From Terasakiella sp. (lineage in GTDB: Bacteria; Pseudomonadota; Alphaproteobacteria; Rhodospirillales; Terasakiellaceae): a DNA stretch of 40,000 nucleotides. The notes under the pieces are model-generated. The model ran no database searches, was not told where the DNA came from, and was given only the letters and a program-made list of their open reading frames with translations. Position numbers and translations under genes: made by a program. The stretch's first letter is position 1, and every line of letters begins with the position of its first letter. The stretch spans positions 649,517 through 689,516 of the forward strand of contig NZ_CP182348.1 in the NCBI RefSeq assembly GCF_048571175.1, given 5' to 3'. This document shows, in pieces, positions 8,026 to 27,501 of this stretch.

Positions 8026-8039
8026 TTGGAGAAACATCC

Positions 8040-8606: not shown

Positions 8607-8608
8607 CG

Positions 8609-9952
8609 ATGGATATTCTGACGTTTAACGCTGTCAAACAGCAGCAACACCACCTGAACACGGACCTCTTGGATCCTTGGAAGCGTCCGGCCTTTGCCGT
8701 GGTGTCTATGGTTGGCTCATCCCCATGGGGAACAATTGTCTACAACCATTATCTCCAAGAAATGGGTCGCCAGAATTACAACGACAGCAGCTATACCCAA
8801 GGCTGTACCAGCAGTGATGGCACCGAGTTTTTTAACAACTGGTATTCTTACGGCCAGACCAATTCCAACATCTCTTCAACGGACTCGTCCTATGGCGACA
8901 ACACGGCCCGTTGCGGTCATCTGGGTCACATTGCCCTGGCTGTGGCTCCCGACGGCTCCATGATTGGCCGTGCAGCCCCTTATGCAGCAACGGCGCTTCG
9001 CAATGTCGGCGTTTGGGTCAATAACAAGACCAATAAGAACCTCGCCCTGTTTATGGAAAACCAATACGCCGGGGTTGCGCCCCGCGCCATCGCGCCAGGG
9101 CGTTTGTCCGGGACAGAAGGCTGGCACTTGGCCTGGACGGCGAACAAGTTCTACGCCCAGAACGATTTTGGCACTTACAGCAAGTACGGGATGATCGGAT
9201 ACAACGAGAAAACCCGCACCCTTGTGATCAATGAAAACACCAACGGTGGGACGGGCATGCGTTTGCATGTTTACTCAAGCGTTGCTCCCTTCGATATCCA
9301 CGCCTCAGACCGCAAAACCTGGTTCGATGCTCTGGACGAGGCCAATCATACCTTCTTTGACTGGACGGCAAACTCTGCGGGCTACAGCGAAAGCCTGTAC
9401 CGTGCCGTTGTTGTGCCTTGCGATGATGGGAAGGTGATCATCGTTCGGATGGAACCTCACAGTTATTGCATGCTGGATCGGTTCACGCCGGATGGTGCCG
9501 GTGGCTTCACACAGGAAGCGACTCACACGCTAAGCACCACAACGTCCTATGGGATGGAACAAGGGGATCGCAACGGTCTCCGCTTCCAGATCTCAAACGA
9601 CGGCAAATACGTCATTTGTTATCAGCCCTATTACTACTACGGGGCCGGGGCCGAGGTGTTCCTGATCCGGGTGTCCGACGGCAAGTATGTGTTCTTGCAG
9701 CATCAGGACAGCAGCTACGGGCGTTCTTTTGCGCCGATCCGCGACAGTGATTTCATGATTTCCTATAGCCCTAACTCTGACAGCGGCTACGGCATCTATA
9801 TGTCGCACATCGACACCAAGAGCATTTTTGAGGCGATCGCCGACAAGGGCGACATGAGCTCCAAGGTGCCGGGCTTCAATGTCTACATCTTCGACAGTGC
9901 CTATCACTCCACCAACTATCCTTACATCGTGCCGATCATCGGAGGTAACTAA
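8609..9952 (+). CDS. Orphan 447-aa protein, putative receptor-binding/tail-tip protein
   Basis: Strong RBS (ggagg). Composition is rich in Tyr/Trp/Asn/Ser/Gly/Thr, as expected for beta-rich binding domains. Called from context within the fibre module. No family recognised. Confidence 0.4.
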   Translation: MDILTFNAVKQQQHHLNTDLLDPWKRPAFAVVSMVGSSPWGTIVYNHYLQEMGRQNYNDSSYTQGCTSSDGTEFFNNWYSYGQTNSNISSTDSSYGDNTARCGHLGHIALAVAPDGSMIGRAAPYAATALRNVGVWVNNKTNKNLALFMENQYAGVAPRAIAPGRLSGTEGWHLAWTANKFYAQNDFGTYSKYGMIGYNEKTRTLVINENTNGGTGMRLHVYSSVAPFDIHASDRKTWFDALDEANHTFFDWTANSAGYSESLYRAVVVPCDDGKVIIVRMEPHSYCMLDRFTPDGAGGFTQEATHTLSTTTSYGMEQGDRNGLRFQISNDGKYVICYQPYYYYGAGAEVFLIRVSDGKYVFLQHQDSSYGRSFAPIRDSDFMISYSPNSDSGYGIYMSHIDTKSIFEAIADKGDMSSKVPGFNVYIFDSAYHSTNYPYIVPIIGGN

Positions 9953-9954
9953 TC

Positions 9955-10392
9955 ATGGTCGATAAAATCAGCTTCCCCCATAGCGACGACTGGGGCGTGA
10001 TTGGCCCAAATGGTCAATTCAAATTGCCTGTGCCTTCCAAACTCGGCCACCGCTTTCAGTTGGTCGATGGCAAGGTGGTCGATCGCTACGGAGGTGTCAC
10101 AGACGATGAGGTCAAACAGCAAGACGCCGATACCGTGGCATCTCAACAAGCAGCGGAATTGAAAACAGCACGATCCGCTCTTGTTGGCCGGGTTAAATCA
10201 GAGGCCGGTGAACGGATTACGGCAACCGATTGGAAAGTGGACCGTGCCAGAGAGCGCGATGCCCTGAACGGCACCACCACCTTGCAAGATGTCTACGCCG
10301 AGCGCGAAGCCATCCGAACCGCCAGTGATGAGGCGGAAACCGCCATTGCTGCGCTTGCCACATTGGACGAGATCCAGGCCTTCACCTGGTAA
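9955..10392 (+). CDS. Possible tail-fibre assembly chaperone-like protein
   Basis: 145 aa with an RBS (ggaggt). It is the last gene of the fibre module. The C-terminal half (ITATDWKVDRARERDAL...YAEREAIR) resembles fibre-assembly/DUF4376-type proteins as I recall them. Confidence 0.3.
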   Translation: MVDKISFPHSDDWGVIGPNGQFKLPVPSKLGHRFQLVDGKVVDRYGGVTDDEVKQQDADTVASQQAAELKTARSALVGRVKSEAGERITATDWKVDRARERDALNGTTTLQDVYAEREAIRTASDEAETAIAALATLDEIQAFTW

Positions 10393-10420
10393 AACACTCT
10401 TCCCCAATCGAACCAAATCT

Positions 10421-10445
10421 ACCGGCCTTGAGCCGGTTTTTCTTT
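10421..10445 (+). terminator. Rho-independent terminator closing the fibre module
   Basis: accggc-cttga-gccggt hairpin (10421-10437) followed by a ttttctttg T-tract. Confidence 0.6.
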
Positions 10446-10461
10446 GTCGGCGTTTTGATCC

Positions 10462-11004
10462 ATGCCTGATCCAACACTTAGCCAGGCCATCCGCGAGGCC
10501 TATGCAGCCGCGCCTTCCGATGTGGTGATCCTGCATACACTCGAATTGCGCCATCCAGCTTTTGTTGATGACGACGGAAGCCCGACGGCCATTCGGGTGG
10601 TGCGAGATCACCGTGATCTGGAAGCCCGCCTGGAGGCGTCTGCCCCCGTAAACGGTGGCGAGATGGTGACCTTCATTGCCCTTGCATTTGATTTGTCGTT
10701 GCCGCCCATCGACACGGCCCCCGTGCCAGAAATTACAGTGACATTGGACAACGTTAGCCGTGAGATCGTTCGCCATCTGGATGCGGCAGCCGTTTCTCAG
10801 GACAAGATCGAAATCACCTATCGGCCCTATCTCTCAACCGACCTTGAAGGGCCACAGATGGATCCGCCGATCACACTGGTGCTGACCGAGGTTGAGGCCA
10901 ATGCCCTGCAGGTGACCGGTCGGGCCCGAATGCTGGATATCGGCAATAAGGCCTTTCCGAGTGAGACCTATACGGCCAAGCGGTTTCCGGGGCTCACGCG
11001 ATGA
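10462..11004 (+). CDS. Minor tail protein, DUF1833 / gpL-like
   Basis: 180 aa. The pattern VVILHTLELRHPAF...IRVV...FIALAFDLSLP, plus its position before the NlpC/P60 and J-like genes, supports the call. Confidence 0.55.
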   Translation: MPDPTLSQAIREAYAAAPSDVVILHTLELRHPAFVDDDGSPTAIRVVRDHRDLEARLEASAPVNGGEMVTFIALAFDLSLPPIDTAPVPEITVTLDNVSREIVRHLDAAAVSQDKIEITYRPYLSTDLEGPQMDPPITLVLTEVEANALQVTGRARMLDIGNKAFPSETYTAKRFPGLTR

Positions 11005-11405
11005 CACATTGGGCTGAGAATTATATCGGCCTGCCGTGGTCCGCCACGGGGGAGGGACCGGACTCGTTCCATTGCTGGGCCTTCGTTTGCTGGGTTCAGG
11101 AGCGGCATTTAGGGCGGCGCTTGCCCGCAATCGCTAATCCCGAGGACCTGCTCGGCATCGCCCGAGACTTCCGCGATCACCCGGAGCGCAAACGCTGGGA
11201 TCTTGTTGAATTCCCAAATGAAGGTGACTGCGTCCTGATGCGCCAGGCCCGTTATCCGATCCATGTCGGTATCTGGCTCGATGTGGATGGAGGCGGAGTG
11301 CTGCATTGCGCCCAGGAAGCCGGTGTTGCTTTTCAAACCCTTTCGTCCCTGTCTGCCAATGGCTGGCGGGTTGAGGGCTACTACCGATTTGTTGGAACCG
11401 ATTGA
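11001..11405 (+). CDS. NlpC/P60 (C40) peptidase, lambda gpK-like tail protein
   Basis: Catalytic Cys context DSFHCWAFVCWV and His context YPIHVGIW. ATGA-type overlaps on both sides. Confidence 0.75.
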   Translation: MTHWAENYIGLPWSATGEGPDSFHCWAFVCWVQERHLGRRLPAIANPEDLLGIARDFRDHPERKRWDLVEFPNEGDCVLMRQARYPIHVGIWLDVDGGGVLHCAQEAGVAFQTLSSLSANGWRVEGYYRFVGTD

Positions 11406-13777
11406 TGCTCGCTGCCGTCACCATTGTCAGAAATCCATTCTATCCGGAGCGGGACCGGGAGGTGTGTCCGGTCCTAAGCCCAGTCACCATAACCCAGTGG
11501 CTTGATGGTCAGGGCGTCCAAGAGGCGCAGACGGGTGCAGCCCGGACAGGGACAAAAACCGACTGGTTTGATCGACCGACGATCTGCCTCTTTAACGGCC
11601 AGGCTGTTTTGCGGGCAGATTGGGGAACCACGTTCATCAATGACAACGACGTGGTGGCTTTCGTGACCTTGCCCCAAGGGGGCGGAGGTGGAGGTGGTGG
11701 GGGGAAGAACCCTCTGCGCACAGTCCTATCCATTGCGGTGATGGTGGCCTCTTTTGCGCTTGGCGGGCCTTTGGGGGCGGCCATGGGGATTTCGGCCAAT
11801 GCTGGGGCTGCCCTTGGTATTGGCGCAGGCGTTCTTCAGCAAGCTATCGGCGGGGCGATTATCTCGCTGGCAGGCATGGCGTTGATGAATGCCGTTGTGC
11901 CTGCGCCCAAGCCATCCGTGCCGTCGTTGAGTTTTGGATCCGTTGGTGCGCCACCAGCACCCAGCCCGACTTACTCCTTGTCAGCGCAGGGCAACGAGGC
12001 CCGTCTCGGCCAGCCGATCCCCGTCCTCTATGGCCGTCACCTGATCTATCCCGATCTAGCGACCCAACCCTATCAGGAATTCGTGAACAATGAGCAGTAC
12101 CTGTTTCAGCTCCATGTGATCGGGCAGGGTGAGTTTGATCTTGAACAGGTTCGCATTGAAGACACACCCATTGCGTCTTTCGAAGAGGTGGAGACCGAGA
12201 TCGTTGGGCCGGGCGGCAGTGTCACATTGTTTGAAACCGATGTGGTCACCGCGCCTGAGGTCGCCGGACAGGAACTGCGCAGTACCGGTGATGGCGGGGA
12301 CTGGGTTGGTCCGTTTACAGCCAATCCCGCTGAGACCAAAGCCGGTCACATCGGCATTGATGTGGTGTTCGCCCGGGGGCTCTATTACGCCAATGACAGT
12401 GGTGGGCTGGATACCCGCAGCGCCCAGTGGGAGGTTCAGGCCCGGACCATTGATGATGAAGGACTGCCGACAGGTGGTTGGGCATCCCTGGGTACAGAGA
12501 GCTATACAGCCTCAACCAATTCCGTCCTCAGGCTAAGCTATAAATACGTCGTTTCGTCCGGGCGCTATGAAGTGCGGATGATTCGCCTTGATACGATTGA
12601 TACCTCGTCGCGTGCTGGACATGAATTGCGCTGGGGGGCTGTCCGCTCGTATCTGGAAGGCACCCCGGATTTCGGCAATGTAACGCTGTTGGCCGTCAAA
12701 ATGCGGGCGACCGATAACCTGTCGCAGCGATCGTCTCGCATGATTAACTGCGTGGTTACTCGGAAGCTCTCGATTTGGACCCCTGAAACCGGGTGGTCAT
12801 CGCCTGAACCGACACGCTCCATTGCCTGGTCCTTCGCTGATGCCTGTCGAGCGTCTTACGGCGCTGGGTTGGCCGAGACACGAATGGACCTTCAGGCATT
12901 GACCGCTTTGGATCAAGCCTGGACGGAAAGGGGCGATACCTTCGATGGGGTTTTCGACAGCACCATGACGGTCTGGGAAGCCCTGATCCGTATTGCGCGA
13001 TGTGGACGGGCCGTTCCCGTATTGCAGGGTGGTGTGGTGCGGCTATTTCGGGATGCGCAGCAGACTTTGCCCGTGGCCATGTTCAGCCCCCGCAATATCG
13101 TCAAAGGCTCATTCAAGATTCAATACATCATGCCGGGTGATGATACGGCGGATGCCGTAACCGTGGAGTTTTTCAATTCCCGGACATGGAATCCAGACGA
13201 GGTCACATCCAGTCTTCCGGATAGTGCAGCAGAAAAACCAGCAAAAGTGATGCTTTTTGGTTGCACCAATGAACCGCAAGCCAAGCGCGAAGGGCTCTAT
13301 ATGGCAGCGGACAATCGCTATCGCCGAAAGTTGGTTTCCTGGCAGACCGAACTGGATGGCCTAATACCGACCTATGGGGATTTGGTAGCTGTCACGCACG
13401 ATATGCCGCGATGGGGGCAAGGCGGTGAAGTGGTTTCATGGGATCCGGAAACTTCAATTCTGGAAGTCTCAGAGCCGCTGGAATGGTCGAATGGAGATGA
13501 TCACTACATTGCCTTGCGCCGTCGCGATGGCAGCCCGGCTGGGCCGTTTAAGGTTCAAGCCAATGGTGATGATATGAGATCACTGAGGATCTTGGATGCG
13601 CTGGATTTTGTGCCTTACACCGGCACGGCAGAAGAGCGCAGCCACTTTGCCTTCGGTCCCGGAGAAGCTTGGAGTGCTAAGGCGCGTGTGATTGCTGTCA
13701 GGCCCCGTGGCGAGCAGGTCGAGATCACGGCAGTCGGCGAGGATGTTCGTGTACACGAGGCCGATCTAGCCGCCTGA
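11402..13777 (+). CDS. Fused tail assembly protein I-like / host specificity protein J-like central tail tip protein
   Basis: 791 aa. The N-terminal ~190 aa carry a GGGGGGGGGKNPLRTVLSIAVMVA segment and hydrophobic Gly/Ala stretch typical of gpI C-termini. The remainder has J-like motifs (GQPIPVLYGRH, YLFQLHVIGQGE). Confidence 0.7.
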   Translation: MMLAAVTIVRNPFYPERDREVCPVLSPVTITQWLDGQGVQEAQTGAARTGTKTDWFDRPTICLFNGQAVLRADWGTTFINDNDVVAFVTLPQGGGGGGGGGKNPLRTVLSIAVMVASFALGGPLGAAMGISANAGAALGIGAGVLQQAIGGAIISLAGMALMNAVVPAPKPSVPSLSFGSVGAPPAPSPTYSLSAQGNEARLGQPIPVLYGRHLIYPDLATQPYQEFVNNEQYLFQLHVIGQGEFDLEQVRIEDTPIASFEEVETEIVGPGGSVTLFETDVVTAPEVAGQELRSTGDGGDWVGPFTANPAETKAGHIGIDVVFARGLYYANDSGGLDTRSAQWEVQARTIDDEGLPTGGWASLGTESYTASTNSVLRLSYKYVVSSGRYEVRMIRLDTIDTSSRAGHELRWGAVRSYLEGTPDFGNVTLLAVKMRATDNLSQRSSRMINCVVTRKLSIWTPETGWSSPEPTRSIAWSFADACRASYGAGLAETRMDLQALTALDQAWTERGDTFDGVFDSTMTVWEALIRIARCGRAVPVLQGGVVRLFRDAQQTLPVAMFSPRNIVKGSFKIQYIMPGDDTADAVTVEFFNSRTWNPDEVTSSLPDSAAEKPAKVMLFGCTNEPQAKREGLYMAADNRYRRKLVSWQTELDGLIPTYGDLVAVTHDMPRWGQGGEVVSWDPETSILEVSEPLEWSNGDDHYIALRRRDGSPAGPFKVQANGDDMRSLRILDALDFVPYTGTAEERSHFAFGPGEAWSAKARVIAVRPRGEQVEITAVGEDVRVHEADLAA

Positions 13778-14903: not shown

Positions 14904-15752
14904 TCAAAGATTGATAAACCAGTCAGGGTCGACAGATACTTTCTCGACAAGTTCTGTTTTTATGCCAAGAGCGAGTTCTTTTAGTTTGTCCGCTAATTGG
15001 TCTCCATCAACGAGATCGATTGGTGCTGCTCCATCTCTCGTGGCTTCGTCGATAGCTGCCTTTGTGAAACTTCCTGTTGTAATGAAGAGCCCCCGATCTG
15101 CTCTGCCGACAGTAGCTCCTCTGAAATCTCGTATTTCTGGGGCTCCGACCGAGCCCTTATATTTTTTGCACTGGAAAGCGATGTGAAAACTCATCAAGCC
15201 ATTGATGCGAGCAATTCCTTTCCCATCAATTCCGCCATCTCCTGTGCGACCTGTTACCTCCACATGAATAAAACCTGATTCACGGAGTAAACGCTGCGTC
15301 AGACGCTCAAACGAGTCTGGGCTGATTTCATTGATTAGGACCTGATGTAATTTCTCACGCCATGCAAGGGCTTCATCTGGTTGCTCCGAAGAGTCTTCAG
15401 GAGTGTTTTCTGGTTCATTGGAGGCAGATCCCTTGTCTAGGCACCTGACATAGGTCACGATTTCCTTGCTGTCGATAGTTTCTGATTTTTTAGCTTTTTC
15501 AGTTAAAGCCCAGACACCTCTTGATGAATTCTCAAGGTAGCCTGCCTTCTTGAGATAGGTTCGCGCCCACGCTAAACGATAGCCGATTTCTGTTTGGCTG
15601 CTTTTTTCTGGGTTATGAAGAACAGCAAGAGTCTCATCATCAAATTTTTCAAGCTCTATAACGGCTTCATAGATTTCATCAATACTGCCAGACCCTCCAA
15701 GGTTAACGAGTGCTTTCATCAATGGCAGCATAAGCTGGTCAAATGTGACCAT
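14904..15752 (-). CDS. mrr: Mrr-family type IV restriction endonuclease
   Basis: N-terminal winged-helix Mrr_N-like region and a C-terminal catalytic core (GDGGIDGKG...HIAFQCKKYKG). ATG at 15752 has GGAGG 7 nt upstream; the track start at 15773 is a TTG. Confidence 0.85.
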   Translation of the reverse strand: MVTFDQLMLPLMKALVNLGGSGSIDEIYEAVIELEKFDDETLAVLHNPEKSSQTEIGYRLAWARTYLKKAGYLENSSRGVWALTEKAKKSETIDSKEIVTYVRCLDKGSASNEPENTPEDSSEQPDEALAWREKLHQVLINEISPDSFERLTQRLLRESGFIHVEVTGRTGDGGIDGKGIARINGLMSFHIAFQCKKYKGSVGAPEIRDFRGATVGRADRGLFITTGSFTKAAIDEATRDGAAPIDLVDGDQLADKLKELALGIKTELVEKVSVDPDWFINL

Positions 15753-16893
15753 GATTTTGTCCTCCAAATTCAAGAGGAAGCAGGTTCAAAAGCTGATCCC
15801 CGATGTTAGTCGCCGTTTCATCTAAATTCACTGTGCAGAAATGGATAGGGTGCCCTTGAATTGACACCTGTTCAGATACAGTTTTGTCGATGGTCGGATG
15901 TAGAAGCATGCCGGAAGTGGTGAAAGAATTTTTCTTACCTGGAAATTCCTGGCTCCGAAGATATGTATAGATTTGGTATAGGTATCCGCTTCTTAGAGTT
16001 TCCTCACGAAACCAGCCCTTTGTCGTGATTGAGTTAAATTTAGTGTCAATTACGAGTCTTTCGCCAGTTTCCTTGTTTTCGATCGAAATGTCGGTTTTCA
16101 TGATCGGCAATATAGCGTCAATCCCGTTAGTTCTTTTGTCAATTTGCCAGAGGAGCTGTTCGCCGGATGACACTCGAAATTTTGAGCGATTGAGTCTGAT
16201 TGCATAAAACCCAGCGATAGCCTTTTCGAATAATTTACGTAACCAACGTATATCGGTTTCGGGCCTTAAAATATGGCGATCTCCAGACATCTGTGTTGGA
16301 AGCATTAGGTCAAAGGCTAAGTCAGCTGCGCTTAGCATTTTTTGGTCCTCAAAATCGCTTCGTCCCAACCGTTCGCTCTTGCTTGAGTATCCAGTCGGTT
16401 TCCCTTGAGTTACGCCCAAACGATCCATGCTGAAAGCTAATGATCGGCAGTGCTTCGACAATTGTTTTTGAGAGGTAATTTTTGCTAGTTGTTCTAAAGC
16501 TGCTCGAACATAACGGTTTCTGGGGGTGTTAGTGGTAAGTCTTTCAAACGTGCAAGAAACTTTGCCTTTTTCGAGAAGCCGATGACTTTCTGTGTAAAGC
16601 GAATTAATTCGCCCTCGTACTTGTCCAAGAATTGCGGTCTCTTGGGTATAGCCAAAGCTAAGATTTCGGATGAGGCGACGTTCCACTTGGTAGCACAATA
16701 CTTCTGCTACCAAATCAGCAATATCCTCGGGGTTCTCAGTCAATCTAGATTTGTCAGAACCGAGATGTCGAAACATGTCAGATGCATACAGAACTAAAAG
16801 CCAGATATTTCTTACCGGTATTCCGCCCAAAAGTTGCTGGCTTAGAGCTGTAGGATTTGTATCTGGCGCATCTAGTGAAGCTGTATCCATCAC
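15739..16893 (-). CDS. mcrC: McrC-like nuclease subunit of the McrBC system
   Basis: 384 aa directly coupled to mcrB (GTG 16893 or ATG 16890, overlapping the mcrB stop). C-terminal PD-(D/E)xK-like segment DISIENKETGERLVIDTKF. Confidence 0.8.
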   Translation of the reverse strand: MMDTASLDAPDTNPTALSQQLLGGIPVRNIWLLVLYASDMFRHLGSDKSRLTENPEDIADLVAEVLCYQVERRLIRNLSFGYTQETAILGQVRGRINSLYTESHRLLEKGKVSCTFERLTTNTPRNRYVRAALEQLAKITSQKQLSKHCRSLAFSMDRLGVTQGKPTGYSSKSERLGRSDFEDQKMLSAADLAFDLMLPTQMSGDRHILRPETDIRWLRKLFEKAIAGFYAIRLNRSKFRVSSGEQLLWQIDKRTNGIDAILPIMKTDISIENKETGERLVIDTKFNSITTKGWFREETLRSGYLYQIYTYLRSQEFPGKKNSFTTSGMLLHPTIDKTVSEQVSIQGHPIHFCTVNLDETATNIGDQLLNLLPLEFGGQNHGHI

Positions 16894-19310
16894 AGTCCTG
16901 CCAGTAACTTGCTCTTAGCACTCTGAGAGCGATCAAGATCGTCAAACCAATACTCGTCCAGAAGTGGGCCAATTTCCGTTTGGACAACATTTCGATACCA
17001 GTCTAAAGCGTCTGTAATTTTTGCATTGAAGGCAGGAGTCACATAGCTATGACCTATTTTAAATTGCGCCCCCAGATTTCGATCATTCTCAATTTCGGCA
17101 TTTAAAGAGATAAGGCGCTCTTCGATGTTCTGAAGCACCTCCATATCTATTCCTGATTTTTCGTGAACCCATTTTTTCCAGGGATCACCAAACGTGGGCT
17201 TAAGATCGATAAAAGCAAAACGCCTACGAAGAGCCAAATCGACTAGAGCGAGGGACCTGTCTGCCACATTCATTGTGCCGATGACATAGAGGTTATCAGG
17301 AACGAAAACACGTTCGGAATCACTTCGACGATAACTTAGCTCAAGAGCTTCTGCCGGTGTTCTTTTGTCAGCTTCAAGAAGGGTTAGCATTTCACCAAAA
17401 ATTTGTGCAGGGTTACCCCTGTTGATTTCTTCAATGACGACAACATGCTTATTGCCTGCATCCTTTTTAGCCTGATTGATCGTCTCTAAAAACGGGCCAT
17501 CCACAAGGTCTAATTTCCCTTCCCCAGCGGGCCTCCAGCCACGAACAAAATCTTCGTAAGAAAGGTTGGGGTGAAATTGAACTGCACGAATTTTGTTATC
17601 GCTTTTGTGACCGATAAGGGCGAAGGCTAACTTTTTGGCCAGCCAGGTTTTTCCCGTTCCCGGAGGGCCTTGTAGAATCAAATTTTTCTTGTTTCTTAAG
17701 CGTTCCAAAATTGCGGCTAAGTTATCTTTTTCTAGAAAGCAGCCATCTTTGATAATGTCATCCAATGTATAGGGCTCGATAGGAGCGACCGCTGGCTCTG
17801 ATTCATCCTCTGTTTCATGTTCCAAGTCAGGGTCAGTTGCATTGGGGTGCGCGGAAGTGCCTGTGTCTTTGTATAGCCATGCAGCGAGAGAGAGTTCTGG
17901 AAACGAGTGAACAGGATACGCATCTTCCAGAAAGCGCAGCTCAAGTTCGTCTAGAATTGCCAAGTAGTCTTTTCCTGAGCACCTACGCTTCGGGCCGTTT
18001 TTACCAATTTCGATTCCGAGCTTTTTCTCAATATATAGCTGTGATTGACCATCAAGCGTGGGGAAATTCCATGGGCGTACCCAATAAAGGCCCATCGATA
18101 AATTCCAGCCAACGCCGTATTGTTGAGAAACAATGCCATAGCCCGAAAGGAATTCATCTCTGGCATCAGCGTCATCTTTATCCGCGAAATTTAGGGCTTT
18201 TTCAAAAAAGTCCCAAAGCCTCTCGATGTCGCCGTCTTCTCTCCTGTCTTCAAAACCGAAAAACCAGGACTTTTGATTGTTCAGGATTGGTATCCCTTCA
18301 AATGAGTCCGGAACTGGTTCTTTAACGTCCAAAAAGTCAGCTAGTTCTTTTGCGATGGCTTTTCTATTTTCATCAGTAATTCCCCTGTTGAATGTTCCCA
18401 TGGTGGTAAAGGGACAAATGTCTGTTTGACCTTTATCCTTGATGTAGGACAGGTCTAGTTTTTCGGCCAATTCGTTGATGAATTTAATAAGGCCTCTTCG
18501 GTCGTCTTTGTGTTTTAAAAGCGCTTGACCGATCGCTTCATAAAACTTGGTCCAGTGGAAACGTTTTGTTTCTACTGGCGTATCACCAAATCTTTCTTGC
18601 CAGAATGGTGCATTTCTAAAGCGGTCTAATTCCTGAGGTATATCATTGAACGTAAAATCAATGAGGCCTTTTGCCTCCCACCGATCAGGGGTTAAACGCC
18701 AAATCGTGCTTCTGTTTGTATAAAAATACCATTCCCGTGGTGTTTCATATTTAGGCGACCAGTCCACATCAACGGTTTGGCCATCACCATGGTTTTTGGT
18801 GATGACACCGATGACTTTGATACCCATTGCAGAAACGGATTGGCCTCCATTATCGAATGGCAGGTTGTGCTTGCGTGTGTACGACGATTTAATAGCAATG
18901 AGGTCGCCAGTTTTCATTGAGCGCACCACATCAAGATATTTATTGTCATAACCGTTTTGCCAGATCCCTTCCTCTATGAAGCTGTCTGTTTGATCTTCGG
19001 CTGCCTTGCCCCACGAAGCTCCCACGAACCAATATGATTTTGGGTTTGTGCTTGCCATTTTTGCTTTGGCAAGGATTGCATCTGTAATAACCCCTGCTAG
19101 TGGCAATTCGCTTTTGTCCATAATTGCTCTGATTTTAAGCTTGAGCTCAGCTTGGATGTCACTTTTTAAATGCCAATCAGTGTACGACTGGATCTTGTCA
19201 ACGACTTGAGCAACATCGTTTGTGACCGTGGCCAAATGGGATGCCTCTAGCTCCACCTTTTGTGAAGCTGCCTGTTCTAAAATGATTTTTCTTATATCTT
19301 CGGTCTTCAT
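16890..19310 (-). CDS. mcrB: McrB-family AAA+ GTPase with a ~540-aa N-terminal extension
   Basis: Walker A LILQGPPGTGKTW (about 17645-17668). McrB signature VVVIEEINRGNPAQIFGEMLTLLE and YVIGTMNVADRSLALVDLALRRRFAF. The N-terminus contains a PUA/EVE-like stretch (YWFVGASWG...KTGDLIAIKSS...IKVIGVI). Confidence 0.9.
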   Translation of the reverse strand: MKTEDIRKIILEQAASQKVELEASHLATVTNDVAQVVDKIQSYTDWHLKSDIQAELKLKIRAIMDKSELPLAGVITDAILAKAKMASTNPKSYWFVGASWGKAAEDQTDSFIEEGIWQNGYDNKYLDVVRSMKTGDLIAIKSSYTRKHNLPFDNGGQSVSAMGIKVIGVITKNHGDGQTVDVDWSPKYETPREWYFYTNRSTIWRLTPDRWEAKGLIDFTFNDIPQELDRFRNAPFWQERFGDTPVETKRFHWTKFYEAIGQALLKHKDDRRGLIKFINELAEKLDLSYIKDKGQTDICPFTTMGTFNRGITDENRKAIAKELADFLDVKEPVPDSFEGIPILNNQKSWFFGFEDRREDGDIERLWDFFEKALNFADKDDADARDEFLSGYGIVSQQYGVGWNLSMGLYWVRPWNFPTLDGQSQLYIEKKLGIEIGKNGPKRRCSGKDYLAILDELELRFLEDAYPVHSFPELSLAAWLYKDTGTSAHPNATDPDLEHETEDESEPAVAPIEPYTLDDIIKDGCFLEKDNLAAILERLRNKKNLILQGPPGTGKTWLAKKLAFALIGHKSDNKIRAVQFHPNLSYEDFVRGWRPAGEGKLDLVDGPFLETINQAKKDAGNKHVVVIEEINRGNPAQIFGEMLTLLEADKRTPAEALELSYRRSDSERVFVPDNLYVIGTMNVADRSLALVDLALRRRFAFIDLKPTFGDPWKKWVHEKSGIDMEVLQNIEERLISLNAEIENDRNLGAQFKIGHSYVTPAFNAKITDALDWYRNVVQTEIGPLLDEYWFDDLDRSQSAKSKLLAGL

Positions 19311-19349
19311 GACGGATTTCCAGTGTCAGCATACATTCAAGAATTTGGG

Positions 19350-22300
19350 CTATCGGGTCCAGGAGTTGGAGAGCGTTTCGGCTTGCTTTAAGACCAGCTC
19401 AACAGCTTCGGCTGCTTTGTCAGGCGGGTACTTCCACCTCTGAAGAGTCCGTCGGACAAGTATCTTGAGCTTTGCCCGGACACTGTCACGAACCTGCCAG
19501 TCTACGGTTGTTGATTTCCTGAGTTTCTCAGTGATTTCAACGGCGATTTTTTTAAGGATTTCATCACCGAGCTCGCGTACTGCACTCTCATTGTTGGCTA
19601 AGGCATCGTAGAATGCGACTTCATCAGGATTAAGGCCGAGTTCTGCTTCTCGAGCCATCTCCTCCTGAAACTCTTTCGCCATTTGAATAAGTTCTTCGAT
19701 CACTTGCGCCGTCTCAATGGCACGGTTGTGATATTTTCGAAGAGTTTCTTGCAGGCGGTCGGCAAACTTCTTTTCTTGCACGACATTGTTTCTGGTTTTT
19801 GCCTTGATGTCGTCTTTGAGAAGTTTCTCCAATAGTTCGACGGCAAGGTTTTTGTGGGGCATCTGCCGCACGTCTTCCAGAAACTCTTCAGACAAAAGGC
19901 CGATATTCGGTTTGTCTAGACCGCAGAGTGCAAAAACGTCAGCTACGCCCTCAGCAACAACAGCATTATCCAGAATTTGCTTTAATGCAGAATTCTTCTC
20001 TTCTTCAGTGCGCTTCTTGTCAACCGTTGTGAATTTGCTGATTGCAGCTTTGATGGCGCTATAAAAAGCGATTTCTTTTCTGAGATCTTTTGCTTCATCC
20101 AGTGTGCTGCTGAGTGAGTAAGCCTTGTTTGTTGCTAGTACTAAATCTAGGAAGCGCTTTTTGCCGTCCTCTATCCCAAGAAGGTAGTTCGCGGCAGGCA
20201 CCAGAAGTTTATGCGCATCCGTTTCAAAAGCAGACAAATCAAGACCGGGAGCCTGAGGTGTTTTGGCAAACATCCCTCTGATAGCATCCAGCTTTTCCAA
20301 TAATATGGCGAAGGCTTCCGCCGCGTTTAGGGTCGGTTGACCTTTTCCCTTGGCATCGGTGTAGGTTTTTAGAGCCTGCTTGAGTTCGTTGGCAATGCCG
20401 ATATAGTCGACGACAAGGCCGCCCGGTTTATTCTTGAAGACACGGTTCACCCGAGCGATCGCCTGCATCAAGTTATGCCCCTTCATGGGCTTGTCGACAT
20501 ACATTGTATGGCAGCATGGGGCATCAAAACCAGTTAGCCACATATCGCGGACGATCACGATTTTGAGCGGATCGTCTAGGTCCTTGAAACGTCTCTCAAG
20601 GCGTTTCTTGGTTTTCTTGTTGTAGATGTGTGGCTGCAGTAGTGCCTTGTCCGATGCCGATCCGGTCATCACGATTTTTATCGCGCCCTTTTCTGGATCG
20701 TCATCATGCCAATCTGGGCGAAGGTCAATAATTTCATTATAAAGATGAGCACAGATGTCACGGCTCATGGCGACAATCATTGCCTTACCGTCCATAGTGG
20801 CATTACGAGATTCAAAATGCTGCACAATATCGGTGGCAATTTCTTTGAGGCGAGGGGTTGAGCCTACCAGCTTTTCAAGGCGGCTCCATTCACCTTTGGT
20901 TTTTTCCCTGTTCCCGACATCTTCGTCATCTTCAATTACTTCGTCGACCTGATCGGACAGTGCCGCTATATCATCTCGGTTAAGGTCAAGTTTTGCCAGT
21001 CGAGACTCATAGTAAATTGGCACTGTCGCACCGTCGTCAACGGCATCTTGAATGTCGTAGATGGAGACGTAGTCACCAAAGACGGATCGGGTGTCTTTGT
21101 CTTCTTGCGAAATGGGGGTGCCGGTAAAGCCAATGAATGATGCATTTGGTATGGCATCACGCATATGCTTGGCATATCCGAATTTATAGCTTCCATCTTT
21201 GGTGAGGACAGCTTTAAGGCCATATTGGCTTCGGTGGGCTTCATCCGATATTACCACAATGTTGTGGCGGTCATTTAGAATGGGGTGAGTGTTCTCGTCA
21301 TCCAGAACCGCAAATTTCTGAACTGTTGTAAAGATAATGCCACCGGAGCTTCGTTCACTTAGTAGGTCACGCAGTGTATCCCGATCGTCAGCCTGAACCG
21401 GTGTTTGCTTCAAAAGCTCTTGGGCGTTGCTGAAGGTCGCAAAAAGCTGGCCGTCCAGGTCGTTTCGGTCGGTCACAATGATAAGCGTTGGGTTGTTCAT
21501 CGCAGGTTGCTGTAGGAGTTTCCCTGCGTAACAACACATGGAAATGCTTTTGCCAGACCCTTGCGTGTGCCAAACAACACCAGCCTTTTTATTTCCCCCT
21601 TCATGAGATGCTTCAATGGTTGCGGCGACAGCTTCGCGCACGGCATGGAATTGGTGGTAACCAGCTATTTTCTTTATGATTTTCTCGCCGTCTGTCTCAA
21701 ATAGAATGAAGAAACGGACATAGTCTAGAAACAATTCACGATCGAAGAAGCCCCTTACCATTGTTTCCAATTGCCATTCCAGTAAGGGCTTGTCGTCTTC
21801 ATCTTTAATCGTGCGCCACGGCATGAAGCGTTCTTGGTTGGCTGTCAGGGAGCCTACACGAGCTGTGTAGCCGTCGCTGATGATCAAAGCTTCATTAAAG
21901 ATAAAGAGGTCAGAGATTTCTTCTTTGTAGGTCTGTATCTGATTGAAGGCATCCCAGATATCGGCGTTTTCGTCTGAGGGGCTTTTTAATTCCAAAACGG
22001 CGATGGGCAGGCCATTAATAAAGCAAACAATATCCGGCCTGCGCGGCTGTTTGGTGCCGCTTACGGTAAATTGGTTGATGGCTTGAAAACGATTTGCAGC
22101 GATATTTTCAAAATCAATGAGAAACGCATGGTCGTGGACGGGTTTGTCCCCGTCTTTAAAATCAACCGGAATGCCGCTTAGCAGAAGGCGGTGGAAGGCT
22201 CGGTTATTTGTAATGAGATCAAGGCTTTCTGCGTGGCGAAGCTTCGCAAGTACCTGCTCTAAGCAGATAGAGATGGCTTCGCTCGGGATATGTTTGTTAA

Positions 22301-22463
22301 TTGCCGGGAAAACAGCGGTGAGCTGGTCCGTCAGCAGAACATCAGAATAATTGCCGCGTGCCGGATTGGCTCCATCAGGCGCGATGTCAGGGCCGTGAAC
22401 GACTTCCCAGCCAGTTTCCTTGAACCAATCAAGGCAGAGGTTTTCTAGTTGTTCTTCATTCAT
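19350..22463 (-). CDS. hsdR: Type I restriction enzyme R subunit
   Basis: 1037 aa. Motifs WHTQGSGKS (Walker A), ISDEAHRSQ (DEAH), typical N-terminus [14 protein letters not shown] and C-terminal helical tail. Confidence 0.95.
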
Positions 22464-23323
22464 TGTTCACCTCTTAATTCTGCCTGCTCAGTGCGGACCT
22501 CGTTCGAAATCAATTCGTTGCAATGAAGGGAAGAACCGGTCAGGTCGGGATATAAATTTGCAAAATGCAGGTTCATTCTGCGTAGCGCCATTAAACAATC
22601 TTGACGCTCATCTTTCGTTTCAATTGGGATATGAAGTTTGAAAATGTAATCTTTAAGGACGAGAGGGTCGTCCACATCGACTTCGTTTTCAGCCAGAGTG
22701 TTAATGATTGTGGTTTCGAGGCTTGTTTCACCGCTGGGGGACAGGGTGAATAAGCCATCTTGACTGATTAAACGGTCATGATCGCTGCTCAGTGGATTAA
22801 CAAAGAGGTCATGAGGAAAAAACGTTTCAAGGTTGCTTTTGTTCAAGCCGAATATGGCACGGCTATAGTTCTTTGGCTTCTCATGCTTTGGATCTTCCTC
22901 GTGCATGGCGAAAAACATGGCGACAAACGGGGAGTGAGACCAATCGAGAAGGGGTGTCCACAGGCCATAATGTTGACCCAGGGCCCATATGTCATCGGCA
23001 CTACCCATCTGAGAGACGGGAATTTTAGTTCTGCCGCGAATAGAGTATTTGAAATTCTCTAAATGGCGTTCGGCCCAGTCTTCTTGGTAGGTCCCCGCTT
23101 CTGTCATGCGGGCGATACTAGGTGTTAAGCCCCAAGATGCATTCCTTTGTCCGCGAAACAGCATTTCGCATGATGAGGACGCAATCTTTCCTGCGTTTGT
23201 AAGTTGCAGAAATTCTTCCCAATTCTTCAAACGGGCCACAGGGATGTTGCCATCCACTTTATCGCCGTGGATGACGAAATCGGGCCACTTAGGAGATTTC
23301 AGGAAGGGTTTCCGTCTAGTCAT
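22460..23323 (-). CDS. FRG-domain protein embedded in the type I operon
   Basis: Motifs [38 protein letters not shown] and [12 protein letters not shown] at 23323 overlaps the hsdS stop by 8 nt, and its stop forms ATGA with the hsdR start. Confidence 0.8.
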
Positions 23324-24695
23324 CAGCAAGCCCCTCCAAATCGATTTCTCCCGACAGGAGCTTGGGTAAAAGCGTGTCCCGGAGCGATTTTAGCGTTTCC
23401 TGCTCGACCAAATTGCTTTCAATGTTGTCAAGGTATGGAGCGGTCACGCTGCAGAATAGAGCTTGGATCTCTTCAGAAGGAACACAATACTTCAGTTTTT
23501 CCATATCTTTGCGAGTTACATGACCTAGGCCAGTGGTCTGCTTGTTTTTCGCTATCGCAATGAAAACAGGCTTTAGATGTTTAAGAAGCCAAAATGTGGA
23601 GTTCCGTTGGGCAGGCTCAGAGTTGACCACTTTGAAAATGTGCTGATTCAGCCAAGCTTCACCGCCAACCCAAATAAAGGTGTCAATTGAAGTCTCTGGA
23701 CTGCCCGACCAGGAAAATAATATATCTCCGGTGTCGAGTTTGAATTTGTCTCCAAGGTCTGTGTTCGTAAATTTTGTATTTCCGGTAATTCCACTTTTAA
23801 GTTCCGCAATTTTGATCACGGGCTTTGCATCAGGATCAGAAGAAAAATGCATATTTTTATATGCGGCACCGTTAATGAATTCAGCAGAATTGATCACAGC
23901 TTCAGTTGTCCAACCCTCGGGGATCGGGCCAAGTTCACTGTCTGCCAAAGCTGCTGGAAAGAGTGCGGCAGTAGCTTGGAGCTTAGCATAAGCTTCTGGT
24001 TGGTCAGCTGCCATCGCATCTAATGCGGCGCTGTCTTTGCCAGAAATGGCTGTCATCGCGGCGCGTTCGGCTTCGTCTTCTGTGCCGCCTGCTTCGAGAA
24101 CTTTAATTTTTGCCTTGGTTGGCTCAAAATCCACAAACCAGCTTTTGAAAATCGCTTGCGCCATTTCCTCCAGCGTTCTGTTGATCTGGTTGTTGATTTC
24201 GATTTTGTCGTCGAGCGCCTTTAAGTGGTCGCCAATTTTTCTTTGAACATTTGGGCTAGGTATATAGGCTCTGTATTGTGTGATTGCAGTTTTATCACCG
24301 CGTGGCATTTTAGCGCCTTTTGATGTCTGATCTGTGTAATCGACAAAGTGCTTGTTGCTCAGCAGGTAATATAAAAATGTAGGCAATACATTTTTTTTAT
24401 CTTTGGATCGAAAAATTAAAACATCTGGTGAAGCGCCGCCTTCAAAGCTTGCATGCCACACTTTGCGAAAGTATGTGCGAATGTTTGAAAATAATGTGTC
24501 GCCAACTTGGAAGTGATTAAATTTTGAAGCGGCCGGTAATTTAGACGCCTTTTCGACTCCTCCACGATCCACGATCATATTGTCGGTGGAAATATAAGTA
24601 TTTTCATCTACCTCATCGGCGGAAATTTTATCGCTGATTAGGTCAATAATATTGCCTAATTCATGCGTTGTGTTGAAATCAAAGTCAGCAGTCAT
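23316..24695 (-). CDS. hsdS: Type I restriction enzyme specificity subunit (two TRDs)
   Basis: Central conserved helix TLEEMAQAIFKSWFVDFEP and C-terminal LKSLRDTLLPKLLSGEI. ATG at 24695 overlaps the hsdM stop by 11 nt; the track start at 24752 lies inside hsdM. Confidence 0.9.
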   Translation of the reverse strand: MTADFDFNTTHELGNIIDLISDKISADEVDENTYISTDNMIVDRGGVEKASKLPAASKFNHFQVGDTLFSNIRTYFRKVWHASFEGGASPDVLIFRSKDKKNVLPTFLYYLLSNKHFVDYTDQTSKGAKMPRGDKTAITQYRAYIPSPNVQRKIGDHLKALDDKIEINNQINRTLEEMAQAIFKSWFVDFEPTKAKIKVLEAGGTEDEAERAAMTAISGKDSAALDAMAADQPEAYAKLQATAALFPAALADSELGPIPEGWTTEAVINSAEFINGAAYKNMHFSSDPDAKPVIKIAELKSGITGNTKFTNTDLGDKFKLDTGDILFSWSGSPETSIDTFIWVGGEAWLNQHIFKVVNSEPAQRNSTFWLLKHLKPVFIAIAKNKQTTGLGHVTRKDMEKLKYCVPSEEIQALFCSVTAPYLDNIESNLVEQETLKSLRDTLLPKLLSGEIDLEGLADD

Positions 24696-26415
24696 AACCC
24701 AACCCCGCCAAGTTAGATTTGATCTCATTCTCCAACGCTTCGGCTGTTTCAAACTGGGATGAAAGTTCAGCCGATAGACGGGTCATCTTTTCTGTAAACG
24801 GTTCTGTATCTTCTTCACCGTCAACGGCACCGACGTAACGACCGGGTGTAAGCACAAAGTCGTGCTTGTCCATGTCTGCTAATTCGGCAGAGAAACAAAA
24901 GCCTTTTTCATCCGCATAATCAGTGCCTGTTTTCCAAGCATGGAAGGTCCCAGCAATCTTTGCGATGTCTTTATTCGTAAAATCACGCAGCACCCGGTCT
25001 TTCATGAAGCCGATATTTCGAGCGTCGATGAAGAGTGTTTTGCCGCTGCGATCTCGTTTTCCATTGCCGCCCTTTTTGTTTTTGGTTAGGAACCAGATAC
25101 AGGCTGGAATTTGTGTGTTAGTGAAGAGTTGGCCTGGCAAAGCAACCATACATTCTACGAGATCGTTTTGGATGAGAGCCTTACGAATAACGCCTTCGTT
25201 GTTGGTGTTGCTGCTCATAGACCCATTTGCGAGTAAGAGTGCCATAGAGCCATTGTTGTTCAGATGATGCAGCATATGAAGAATCCACGCGAAATTTGCA
25301 TTGCCTGCAGGCGGTGTTTCATACCCTTTCCAGCGCACATCATCTTCAAGGCTGGCATGCCACCAGTCTTTGATGTTGAAAGGCGGGTTGGCCATCACAA
25401 AGTCGGCGCGAAGATCTGGATGCTGATCATCTAAAAAGCTATCAGCGTTTTTCTTGCCGAAATTAAAATCGATCCCGCGAATAGCCATGTTCATGGCAGC
25501 CAATTTCCAGGTGGTTGGATTGCTTTCCTGACCGTAAACCGAGATATGTTTCTTCTGCTCCTGAGCGTTGTAATGCTTTTCCGCAGCATGGGCTTCGATG
25601 AATTTATCATTCGAGACGAAGAAGCCCCCCGCACCCATGGCAGGGTCGTAGACGCGGCCTTTATATGGCTCGAGCATTTCTACAATCAGGGTAACAACGC
25701 TTTTCGGTGTGTAATACTGCCCACCCTGTTTTCCTTCCGCGAGGGCGAATTGCCCGAGGAAATATTCGTAGACGTGACCGAGAATGTCTTTGCTGTGCAG
25801 GTCCAGCTTTTCCCCTTCAAATTCCGGATTGCTGAAGCTGGTATCCGAGAATTTGTTGATGAGCTCTGTAAGGTTATGGTTATCCACCTGATATTGACTA
25901 ATGCGTGGAAGGACATTTTTTAGTTTTGGGTTGGCTGGCTTATCGCCAATCTTATAAGTCTCAATGGCTTCAAGCGCATTGTCGATCAGCTTTGAAATAG
26001 ACGTTAGCTTGATGTCTTTGCCGCTCTCGTCTTGTCCGATAACGGAACCAATGGGCTGGGCAGCCGTTGTTTTCAGGAAGTCCCAGCGTGATTGTTTGGG
26101 CACCCAAAAAACATTCTTTTCCTGATAATACTCGTGAAGTTCCAACTCGGCGCTGACGGCTTCTTCGTATTCTTCGTCGCTGCCATAATCGTCACGCGGC
26201 ATGAAGTAGATGTTGTCGTCGCTGTCATCTTCCGTGAATAATTTGCGAAGCTCATTGCGGCGTTCTTCGAATGCATCAGATACATACTTTAAGAAGATGA
26301 GCCCTAGCACCACATGTTTGTAGTTGGCGGCATCCAGGTTGTTGCGCAAACGATCGGCAGCTTTCCACAGTTTGTCGTCGAGCTCTTTTAAGAATTTTTG
26401 TTCTGCTGATTTCAT
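24685..26415 (-). CDS. hsdM: Type I restriction enzyme N6-adenine methyltransferase subunit
   Basis: AdoMet motif YDPAMGAGGFF, catalytic NPPF (FVMANPPFNIKDW), and an HsdM N-terminal domain (LWKAADRLRNNLDAANYKHVVLGLIFLKY). Confidence 0.95.
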   Translation of the reverse strand: MKSAEQKFLKELDDKLWKAADRLRNNLDAANYKHVVLGLIFLKYVSDAFEERRNELRKLFTEDDSDDNIYFMPRDDYGSDEEYEEAVSAELELHEYYQEKNVFWVPKQSRWDFLKTTAAQPIGSVIGQDESGKDIKLTSISKLIDNALEAIETYKIGDKPANPKLKNVLPRISQYQVDNHNLTELINKFSDTSFSNPEFEGEKLDLHSKDILGHVYEYFLGQFALAEGKQGGQYYTPKSVVTLIVEMLEPYKGRVYDPAMGAGGFFVSNDKFIEAHAAEKHYNAQEQKKHISVYGQESNPTTWKLAAMNMAIRGIDFNFGKKNADSFLDDQHPDLRADFVMANPPFNIKDWWHASLEDDVRWKGYETPPAGNANFAWILHMLHHLNNNGSMALLLANGSMSSNTNNEGVIRKALIQNDLVECMVALPGQLFTNTQIPACIWFLTKNKKGGNGKRDRSGKTLFIDARNIGFMKDRVLRDFTNKDIAKIAGTFHAWKTGTDYADEKGFCFSAELADMDKHDFVLTPGRYVGAVDGEEDTEPFTEKMTRLSAELSSQFETAEALENEIKSNLAGLGYDC

Positions 26416-26428
26416 CTTTTTCTCTCAT

Positions 26429-27364
26429 TCACGCATTGCTGACGTCAGTCAGGAACTGTTGGTTGTGATGGCTGGTATACCCTGGTGCAATCGCAAGGTT
26501 TTCAACGCCGTAAAGGGTTGGGGTGTTCTTCAGCCACAGATGATACTCTGGACCGGCTAGTTTATGGTCTTCGGTGCAGTCCACATTCCACTTACGGAGA
26601 AGGTAGCCAGCAACGGCGGCTCGAACCTCTACATTGAGCAGGTTGTCAGACATGCCATATTCAAGGCTAATGGCTTCCGGGTGTTTAAGGGCAGGATGCG
26701 GAACGATATGCATCTCAACAATTCGGTTCCACTGTTTGTCCGCGTCTTTTATTTCATGAGGCAATATCAATACGTTCTTTGCAAGTTTAACGCTGGCGAT
26801 CCTGTTAATTACAAAATCAGAAAAGCGCTCTCTTGCACGGTCAAACCCACGCACATGCCAGCGAAGACCATTATCGACCAGTGCGAAAGGGACTATCTCG
26901 CGTTTTGAATTGCCGCTTGATATGGATAGGTAGGTGATTTCAAGGGGAACCTTGTTGTGGATTGCCCTAGTGATGGCAGCCAGAATATCAATATTGGGAA
27001 AATTCAGCTCTGTTGGAGCTTCGGCGGGAACCAGTGAGCATTCCGGGCTGACAAAATCATCCCCATAGCCATGAAGAAGGGCTGCAAGTGTCTGGCTCCC
27101 CGAATATTCGAAAAGGGGTCTGAAACCGTCACGCTGGATATAGGTTTTTACTTTTGTGTCATATTCGATGTTTTTAGGGGTTAAGTCTTTGTATTGGGAA
27201 AGGTCGCGTGAGGCTGCGGCTTCCTTGATCCCGAATCGCTCGACCAAATCAGATCTATTAACTGAGCCTAGGAAATAGAGTTTGAAGTCGATATGAAACA
27301 GTCGCTCCTGCTGTGCTTGGCTGATTTCGGCCAGTTTTGCTTGGATGTCATCCCCTGCAGACAT
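26429..27364 (-). CDS. wHTH-WYL transcriptional regulator (BrxR/CapW-like)
   Basis: ATG at 27364 with GGGGAGA upstream. N-terminus ERLFHIDFKLYFLGSVNRSDLVERFGIKEAAASRDLSQYKDL and WYL core REIVPFALVDNGLRWHVRGFDRARERFSDFVINRI. Its stop lies 13 bp before the hsdM start. Confidence 0.7.
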   Translation of the reverse strand: MSAGDDIQAKLAEISQAQQERLFHIDFKLYFLGSVNRSDLVERFGIKEAAASRDLSQYKDLTPKNIEYDTKVKTYIQRDGFRPLFEYSGSQTLAALLHGYGDDFVSPECSLVPAEAPTELNFPNIDILAAITRAIHNKVPLEITYLSISSGNSKREIVPFALVDNGLRWHVRGFDRARERFSDFVINRIASVKLAKNVLILPHEIKDADKQWNRIVEMHIVPHPALKHPEAISLEYGMSDNLLNVEVRAAVAGYLLRKWNVDCTEDHKLAGPEYHLWLKNTPTLYGVENLAIAPGYTSHHNQQFLTDVSNA

Positions 27365-27501
27365 TTTTCTCCCCAGTTTTATAGCGTGCCAGTTGCGGCT
27401 ATAAAGTAGCGTATAGGGATATATGGTATTTATATATGTGTCAATATGATAACCACTAAGGGTGTTGGTGTCCGATGTTTTTACCCTTGCTCTTTTCTGA
27501 A

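Follow-up and report, generated by a model that had tools for sequence, protein, structure and literature searches.

An HsdR-tail module at the N-terminus of an McrB protein encoded directly behind a type I restriction-modification operon in Terasakiella sp.

Type I restriction-modification systems and McrBC are textbook defence systems, and even where they lie side by side, as in Escherichia coli K-12, they are mostly regarded as independent of each other. A 40,000-nucleotide stretch of the genome of the alphaproteobacterium Terasakiella sp. (contig NZ_CP182348.1, positions 649,517 to 689,516 of the forward strand; hereafter termed the window) contains genes of both systems, and its mcrB gene, which directly follows hsdR, encodes a protein whose first 88 residues resemble the extreme C-terminus of HsdR. 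The E. coli K-12 enzyme (EcoKMcrBC; structures 6UT6 and 6HZ4) shares with this system the GTPase core and lid of McrB and the mcrB-mcrC gene order with its overlap, and the immigration control region of that strain likewise clusters mcrBC with hsdRMS and mrr; however, the N-terminal 5-methylcytosine-binding domain of K-12 McrB, which comprises about 160 amino acids (aa), is replaced here by about 515 residues made up of the HsdR-tail module, a beta barrel, a helical domain and a linker. The sections of Bell, Wolf and Koonin (2020; PMC7641849) in which McrB and HsdR are treated give EVE-McrB as the commonest EVE architecture in defence systems and place the McrB of Thermococcus gammatolerans (Hosford et al., 2020, cited therein) among the EVE-/YTH-McrB fusions; an HsdR-tail module is not mentioned in those sections. 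Like these fusions, the McrB of the window carries a putative reader barrel of the PUA superfamily ahead of the GTPase, but its barrel is not recognized by Pfam, is followed by a 270-residue DUF8425 domain and is preceded by the HsdR-tail module. No account of a fusion to McrB was found in the literature on DUF3387, PF11867 or T1RH-like domains.

The Pfam family that covers the C-terminal part of this HsdR (PF11867, T1RH-like_C, formerly DUF3387), which is also present in the E. coli control genome, has been described just as a domain of unknown function tied to restriction enzymes (PMC5490813). A passage of PMC2878639 that cites Davies et al. (1999) assigns binding of the HsdM-HsdS core to the C-terminal region of HsdR, an attribution that covers this region generally and is not mapped to the 80 residues considered here. 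PrrC, an anticodon nuclease encoded in a type I locus (EcoprrI, type Ic), is kept latent by the type I enzyme, and inhibition of that enzyme activates it (PMC12707154); as in the window, an effector is encoded together with a type I system, but dependence has been demonstrated there, whereas we infer it here, and PrrC is an RNase, unlike McrBC, which is a DNA restriction enzyme. TgvAB, a type IV system in the type I operon of Vibrio cholerae VPI-2, also represents modification-dependent restriction interleaved with type I genes; it protects when the type I genes are absent, and an HsdR-tail module has not been reported for it (PMC11411939).

The first-pass annotation of the window, which was made from the sequence without database searches, had aligned by eye McrB residues 36–64 with the C-terminal helical tail of the adjacent HsdR. 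The McrB segment lies at 19119–19205 as had been given, and the quoted HsdR segment also exists, although its position (residues 977–1007, 19443–19535) differs slightly from the "about 19400–19520" assigned to it. The likeness itself is real. A BLASTP comparison of McrB residues 1–95 with the HsdR end gave an E-value of 1e-4, and McrB residues 10–83 matched positions 249–323 of the 329-position PF11867 profile, scoring 27.4 bits within whole McrB, 33.1 bits (E 5.1e-8) when residues 1–88 were searched alone and 29.9 bits in a six-frame search of the genome, all three of which exceed the gathering score of 26.8. A profile alignment of the kind proposed in the first-pass annotation was also significant: with six McrB modules on one side and six HsdR ends on the other, hhalign returned a probability of 98.4% and an E-value of 6.8e-15 over 81 columns. 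In addition, about 5,400 open reading frames (ORFs) of 86 loci were searched with a hidden Markov model (HMM) of 13 McrB modules, the targets of which were limited to McrB N-termini, HsdR C-termini and one FRG C-terminus. The module and the HsdR tail have in common the motif T-D-W, two residues, K, four residues, A-E-L-K, and the pattern D-W ... A-[EK]-[LI]-K is conserved throughout. As judged from these comparisons, McrB residues 1–88 are genuinely homologous to the final ~80 residues of HsdR; they correspond to the last quarter of PF11867, but McrB has the terminal roughly 75 positions only, carries them at its N-terminus rather than its C-terminus, and evolves much faster in this part.

Two AlphaFold models were used, one of whole McrB (predicted local distance difference test score, pLDDT, 82) and one of residues 1–482 (pLDDT 90.4; predicted template-modelling score, pTM, 0.77). 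Residues 1–88 were modelled at a pLDDT of about 90 as a separate four-helix unit, joined to the following barrel by a lower-confidence linker at residues 87–92, and conserved basic residues are abundant on helix 3. Sequence searches of the Protein Data Bank (PDB) with the N-terminal region, with the HsdR C-terminal domain and with an N-terminal profile matched no solved structure, and a Foldseek search against the viral structures of BFVD returned nothing significant and therefore gave no hint of phage mimics of the module. A word-based search with residues 1–92 yielded just one protein, 97% identical, since divergence of the module is too rapid for searches of this kind.

The HMM of the McrB module scored the HsdR ends of three loci (L033, L043 and L083) at E-values of about 1e-13, whereas the window-type HsdR end was scored at about 2e-3; thus, the window-type McrB module descends from an HsdR subtype other than that of its neighbour. 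A second type I hsdR is present in the same genome (L089, G000:C1:3533982-3535001; full PF11867, 1047-aa frame). This gene was considered as the source of the module and rejected, as its tail scores no better against the McrB module than the neighbour's does.

The ratio of nonsynonymous to synonymous divergence (dN/dS) of the module in close pairs is 0.08–0.26, which indicates that it is maintained by purifying selection, and genera with McrB bodies that share only 56–75% identity have retained its reading frame, length and core motif. The module is nevertheless the least conserved and fastest-evolving part of McrB, whereas in HsdR no part is more conserved than the tail. Among the window-type loci, most pairs are 29–51% identical in the module, with higher values in very close pairs alone, and 67–82% identical in the McrB body; the HsdR tail is 83–98% identical, and the HsdR core is 80–92% identical in most pairs. 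The strong conservation of the HsdR tail is as expected of an interface.

Among 8,000 candidates scored, 2,849 relatives of the McrB N-terminal region were found at E-values up to 0.001. They fall into two length classes, one of about 806–822 aa with the module, most members of which are annotated with PF11867, and one of about 721–735 aa without it; the module is therefore a 90-residue addition that a widespread type of McrB may have or lack. Genomic context was compared in 80 loci from species-representative genomes and in further loci obtained by exact protein look-up. In the window and in all 15 other distinct loci with a module-bearing mcrB, this gene begins 18–60 bp downstream of an hsdR of the PF11867 type. 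The module-bearing loci are from Cycloclasticus (L001), Kistimonas (L002), Hahella (L003), Vibrio cholerae (L081 and L082), Endozoicomonas (L085), Teredinibacter (L086), Alkalimarinus (L087) and Simiduia (L091), from Pseudoalteromonas (L033) and Bermanella (L043), both with a diverged module, from two metagenomic sources (L092 and L093), and from one element recovered in sister samples (L083 and its duplicate L084). An hsdR within 300 bp of mcrB was found in none of the 48 module-less relatives, each with at least 3 kb of upstream sequence, and in many of these relatives mrr lies upstream of mcrB. Two loci, L020 and L031, have hsdR nearby with another gene in between, and their McrB proteins are without the module. 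The suggestion that such N-termini might be confined to mcrB genes adjacent to hsdR is thus not refuted by this survey, in which the segment was found in no McrB homologue without a type I neighbour.

Gains and losses follow the same pattern. On an McrB tree that was built without the module columns, the module trait changes three times, and each change coincides with a changed hsdR adjacency: once at the clade of the window, once at the module-less L016, which is nested in that clade and is not behind hsdR, and once between L033/L043 and their module-less sister L051. The corresponding sign test gives p 0.25, and three pairs cannot reach significance.

Natural chimeras provide a further line of evidence. 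L083 and L087 are 98% identical in the McrB body and 95% in McrC, but 31% in the module, 35% in the HsdR core and 47% in HsdM. L033 and L043 are 89% and 94% identical in the McrB body and McrC, respectively, but 42% in the module, 70% in the HsdR core and 55% in HsdM, and their synonymous divergence is saturated in the module and unsaturated in the body. The DNA of L081 and L083 is 90% identical from mcrB nucleotide 277 to the mcrC stop, with no detectable similarity upstream; nucleotide 277 belongs to codon 93, which is the linker-barrel boundary. Conversely, L001 and L002 (L002:1213-8661) are 97% identical in the McrB body, McrC and the HsdR core and 91% in the module, but 48% in HsdM, so that hsdM was swapped while hsdR and the module were retained. 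These chimeras indicate that the module travels with hsdR and not with the body of its own gene. The HsdM of L002 is 78% identical to that of L033, and the methyltransferase genes were apparently swapped under an unchanged HsdR.

The same end piece also occurs on unrelated proteins encoded inside type I operons. A 423-aa FRG protein encoded between hsdS and hsdR in L082 ends in PF11867 positions 256–321, and about 98 clusters of FRG-plus-module proteins were found in Vibrio, Alteromonas, Shewanella and others. The PADLOC model of PDC-S15 (PDLC04934, 416 positions) includes both parts, as its positions 6–296 match the FRG protein of the window and its positions 329–394 match McrB residues 3–71. 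One Abi_C protein ends in PF11867 positions 253–320, and the FRG proteins end in positions 253–321; the matched piece is therefore the same discrete end piece in the McrB (249–323), FRG and Abi_C proteins. The FRG and Abi_C proteins have the module at their C-terminus and are encoded between hsdS and hsdR, whereas McrB has it at its N-terminus and is encoded after hsdR. The FRG copy of the window has no tail module, which its homologues in other loci have.

In L082, from Vibrio cholerae, the module is found on three proteins: at the C-terminus of the FRG protein (4342–5613), at the C-terminus of HsdR (6790–9954) and at the N-terminus of McrB (10001–12460). The hsdS-hsdR slot holds different cargo in almost every locus, while hsdR-mcrB-mcrC is constant (L081–L087, L091–L093 and the window); the cargoes are FRG, FRG with the tail module, SIR2_2, Abi_C, AAA_15/AAA_21 with a small gene, RhuM with an unknown gene, and DUF1016/YhcG.

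PF11867 was detected in 44 of 401 genomes of the same class, among which the McrB of the window is the single genuine tail-only fusion. A 290-aa candidate frame in genome G275 (L095, G275:C1:3905410-3905757) was rejected as a degraded hsdR remnant; this remnant of the hsdR C-terminal part is seen as a 285-aa ORF and a 290-aa open frame, in a high-GC genome. A representative-library search with the McrB-module profile returned 237 proteins at E-values up to 0.001, most of which are metagenomic HsdR C-terminal fragments. Three of the proteins considered as carriers of N-terminal modules (P0252, P0342 and P0354) are in fact truncated HsdR ends with extra C-terminal sequence, and some odd domain combinations in this search are probably deletions or assembly chimeras.

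An McrBC enzyme with a reader barrel and a GTPase is known; what is unreported is the accessory HsdR-tail module, and its distribution among sequenced loci points to coupling with type I systems. Our preferred explanation, which we consider about as likely as not, is that the module serves as a portable adaptor that couples McrBC to the upstream type I enzyme, such that the two systems act as a unit. Under this coupling model, a module descended from the C-terminal end of HsdR and carried at the extreme N-terminus of McrB would anchor the McrB hexamer on the type I enzyme whose genes directly precede mcrB, making contact either with the HsdM2-HsdS surface that receives HsdR's own tail, for which the hsdM and hsdS products provide a candidate partner in the form of the methyltransferase core, or with HsdR itself; the type I complex might then position, restrain or license McrBC, or McrBC might back up the type I enzyme. 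Physical binding, its partner, its stoichiometry and the functional outcome are all inferred. A docking or regulatory interface shared with the type I complex, on which the first-pass annotation had speculated, fits the comparative sequence data, that is, the adjacency, the concordant gains and losses, the chimeras and the presence of the module on embedded genes. In a wider and more tentative version, which we think possible although the balance is against it, the C-terminal ~80 residues of HsdR would act as a general, portable tag for docking, by which unrelated effectors (McrBC, FRG and Abi_C proteins) assemble on one type I complex, with the methyltransferase core as a shared hub or sensor.

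A module that was copied from HsdR, is linked to hsdR and also occurs on embedded effectors offers a way to study physical cross-talk between defence systems. Binding, if it is real, would explain the nesting of accessory defence genes in type I operons and the wiring of "guard" or back-up layers to the restriction enzyme, and would give a role to the uncharacterized end of DUF3387/PF11867; if there is no binding, the locus still shows clearly how a domain was captured and modules were exchanged where defence genes adjoin.

Several observations weigh against coupling. The contrast in conservation between the module and the HsdR tail is the main argument against their using one interface in like manner: a variable module and a conserved tail fit poorly with both binding one surface alike. 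Together with the far closer relationship of the window-type module to another HsdR subtype than to the tail of its neighbour, this variability argues, at the level of sequence, against an identical interface. The HsdR of L002 is nearly the same as that of L001 and yet is combined with a very different HsdM, so that a specificity of the HsdR tail for HsdM is not evident. The majority of the module-bearing loci belong to one hsdR lineage (80–92% core identity mostly, and 97% between L001 and L002); the window-type junctions of hsdR and mcrB may therefore have been inherited as a single block, and the independent events are few (three), although the very different HsdR proteins of L083, L033 and L043 (33–35% identical) add independent combinations. 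As exchange needs similar DNA, the breakpoint of the chimeras may mark the divergence of the module rather than selection for matched pairs. Not all FRG and Abi_C genes within type I operons encode the module; it is missing in the window and in L091. Finally, TgvAB can by analogy be regarded as a counter-precedent to obligatory coupling.

Some of these observations would be accounted for if the module were an autonomous accessory domain, for example one that binds DNA non-specifically or helps oligomerization, which was captured once from the 3′-end of hsdR; adjacency would then reflect the site of origin and co-transfer within a compact island rather than any contact with the type I enzyme. 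The conserved basic residues of helix 3, a fast divergence that is unlike that of the HsdR tail, the concentration of most window-type junctions in one highly similar hsdR lineage and the independence of the embedded TgvAB from its type I host all agree with this explanation. However, module-less mcrBC is highly mobile and occurs in many contexts, whereas no module-bearing copy was seen away from hsdR; the module is absent from L016, L020 and L031, where hsdR is not directly in front of mcrB; and the same end piece is present on unrelated proteins embedded in type I operons. We regard an autonomous domain as rather unlikely.

A guard arrangement is a sub-case of coupling, in which the type I complex would hold McrBC latent through the module, and a phage anti-restriction protein that disables the type I enzyme would release or activate McrBC. 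The behaviour of PrrC provides a precedent, the module is found on candidate abortive-infection-type proteins (FRG and Abi_C) of the same operons, and the fast evolution of the module would fit an arms race. However, with a complete reader, a GTPase and an intact McrC, McrB appears to have its own target recognition. Moreover, we know of no homologous module in PrrC, and EcoprrI belongs to another HsdR C-terminal family; the guard arrangement is considered improbable. It is highly improbable that the module, although it is the least conserved McrB region, is no more than a non-functional leftover from duplication of the 3′-end of hsdR and is translated by chance, in view of its dN/dS, the retention of its frame, length and core motif across genera, its confidently predicted fold and its clean loss where hsdR is not adjacent.

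The remainder of the protein is that of an McrB, and the system is, as judged from its sequence, an McrBC-type, GTP-driven, modification-dependent restriction enzyme. AAA_5 was matched at McrB residues 543–698 (E 7.7e-27), positions 160–456 of the NCBIfam model of E. coli McrB corresponded to residues 506–803 (254 bits), and the Walker A sequence G-P-P-G-T-G-K-T and the McrB motif M-N-x-x-D-R-S are both present in the translation; the long N-terminal extension noted in the first-pass annotation was thus confirmed, at about 510–540 residues ahead of the GTPase core. Foldseek aligned McrB with 6UT6 (6UT6_D) at an E-value of 1.7e-22, a template-modelling (TM) score of 0.86 and 42% identity. Whole McrB remained below the cut-off of the NCBIfam equivalog NF008457 (254 versus 637 bits); its N-terminal DNA-binding domain differs from that of E. 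coli. The precomputed annotation assigned the middle region to DUF8425 (PF28527) and the end to McrB_lid (PF28529).

As Foldseek with whole McrB recovered the AAA+ core alone, the separate model of residues 1–482 was built. Its top PDB matches were 2p5d (MJECL36) and 1wmm/2hd9 (PH1033), at E-values of 2.6e-3 to 8.9e-3, a probability of 1.0 and TM scores of 0.46–0.53, with a weaker match to a YTH domain (E 0.19); we take 2p5d and 1wmm/2hd9 to be EVE-family or EVE/PUA-like proteins. No EVE, PUA, ASCH or YTH match was found for McrB residues 90–215 in Pfam, even at E-values up to 10, or in a profile search of the PDB with the N-terminal region. Thus, of the earlier proposal of a PUA/EVE-type barrel at residues ~97–215, a barrel was recovered, with strands at residues 93–206 in the AlphaFold model, whereas a Pfam sequence match was not, and the EVE/PUA-type assignment is a tentative one by fold. 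The mark made by the neighbouring type I enzyme is m6A. The barrel is a putative modified-base reader and, in the model, this EVE-like domain and the helical domain replace the DNA-binding domain of E. coli McrB. Residues 483–510 form a disordered acidic stretch with a pLDDT below 50, and the linker in which they lie is probably flexible.

The genes concerned form a co-directional cluster on the minus strand (14904–27565) in the order WYL regulator, hsdM, hsdS, FRG gene, hsdR, mcrB, mcrC and mrr; their coordinates, together with those of the McrB domains, are given in Table 1. PF11867 spans HsdR residues 705–1033 with an E-value of 3e-121. The product of mcrC, which adjoins mcrB and overlaps its stop, passed the NCBIfam McrC equivalog cut-off (372.8 versus 338 bits). 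A sequence scan of the spacer between hsdR and mcrB predicted no terminator or promoter.

Table 1. Genes of the cluster and predicted parts of McrB and HsdR, in window coordinates.
Feature	Coordinates	Strand	Description
mrr	14904..15773	-	final gene of the cluster; Pfam Mrr_N and Mrr_cat
mcrC	15739..16893	-	overlaps the mcrB 3′ end; Pfam McrBC
mcrB	16890-19310	-	ORF, 806 aa
AAA+ GTPase core, lid and stop codon	16890..17765	-	McrB residues 516-806; E. coli McrB type
Acidic linker, low confidence	17766..17870	-	McrB residues 481-515
All-helical domain	17871..18680	-	McrB residues 211-480; remainder of Pfam DUF8425 (PF28527)
Beta barrel, EVE/PUA-like fold	18681..19034	-	McrB residues 93-210; strands 93-206 in AlphaFold model
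Four-helix HsdR-tail module	19047..19310	-	McrB residues 1-88; helices 3-16, 23-40, 50-66, 72-86
hsdR-mcrB spacer	19311..19349	-	39 bp
hsdR	19350..22463	-	1037 aa; Pfam HSDR_N, SWI2_SNF2, T1R_D3-like, T1RH-like_C
HsdR's own tail module	19371-19613	-	HsdR residues about 951-1031 (hhalign columns)
FRG-domain gene (PDC-S15)	22460..23329	-	between hsdS and hsdR; Pfam FRG
hsdS	23316-24752	-	Pfam Methylase_S
hsdM	24685-26415	-	Pfam HsdM_N and N6_Mtase

Further variation was observed within the McrB subfamily. The helical domain (17871–18680) gave weak, non-significant matches to folds of helix-hairpin-helix-type DNA glycosylases (OGG1 and MutY; probability below 0.4). An McrB of the subfamily from Arenicellales (L070:9731-12211) carries a different N-terminal extension of about 125 aa, which has no match to the tail HMM, and has no adjacent hsdR. 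In seven loci (L018:9953-12574, L020, L023, L026, L027, L031 and L034), an insert of about 130 residues is located between the helical domain and the GTPase, and that of L018 shows a weak match to an Mrr nuclease domain (E 2e-5). In the two metagenomic loci (L092:10423-14451 and L093:9567-13597), the island abuts phage genes for lysozyme, tail and tape-measure proteins; prophage genes flank it on this side in the window too (below 14900), and a prophage hotspot may carry the island as cargo.

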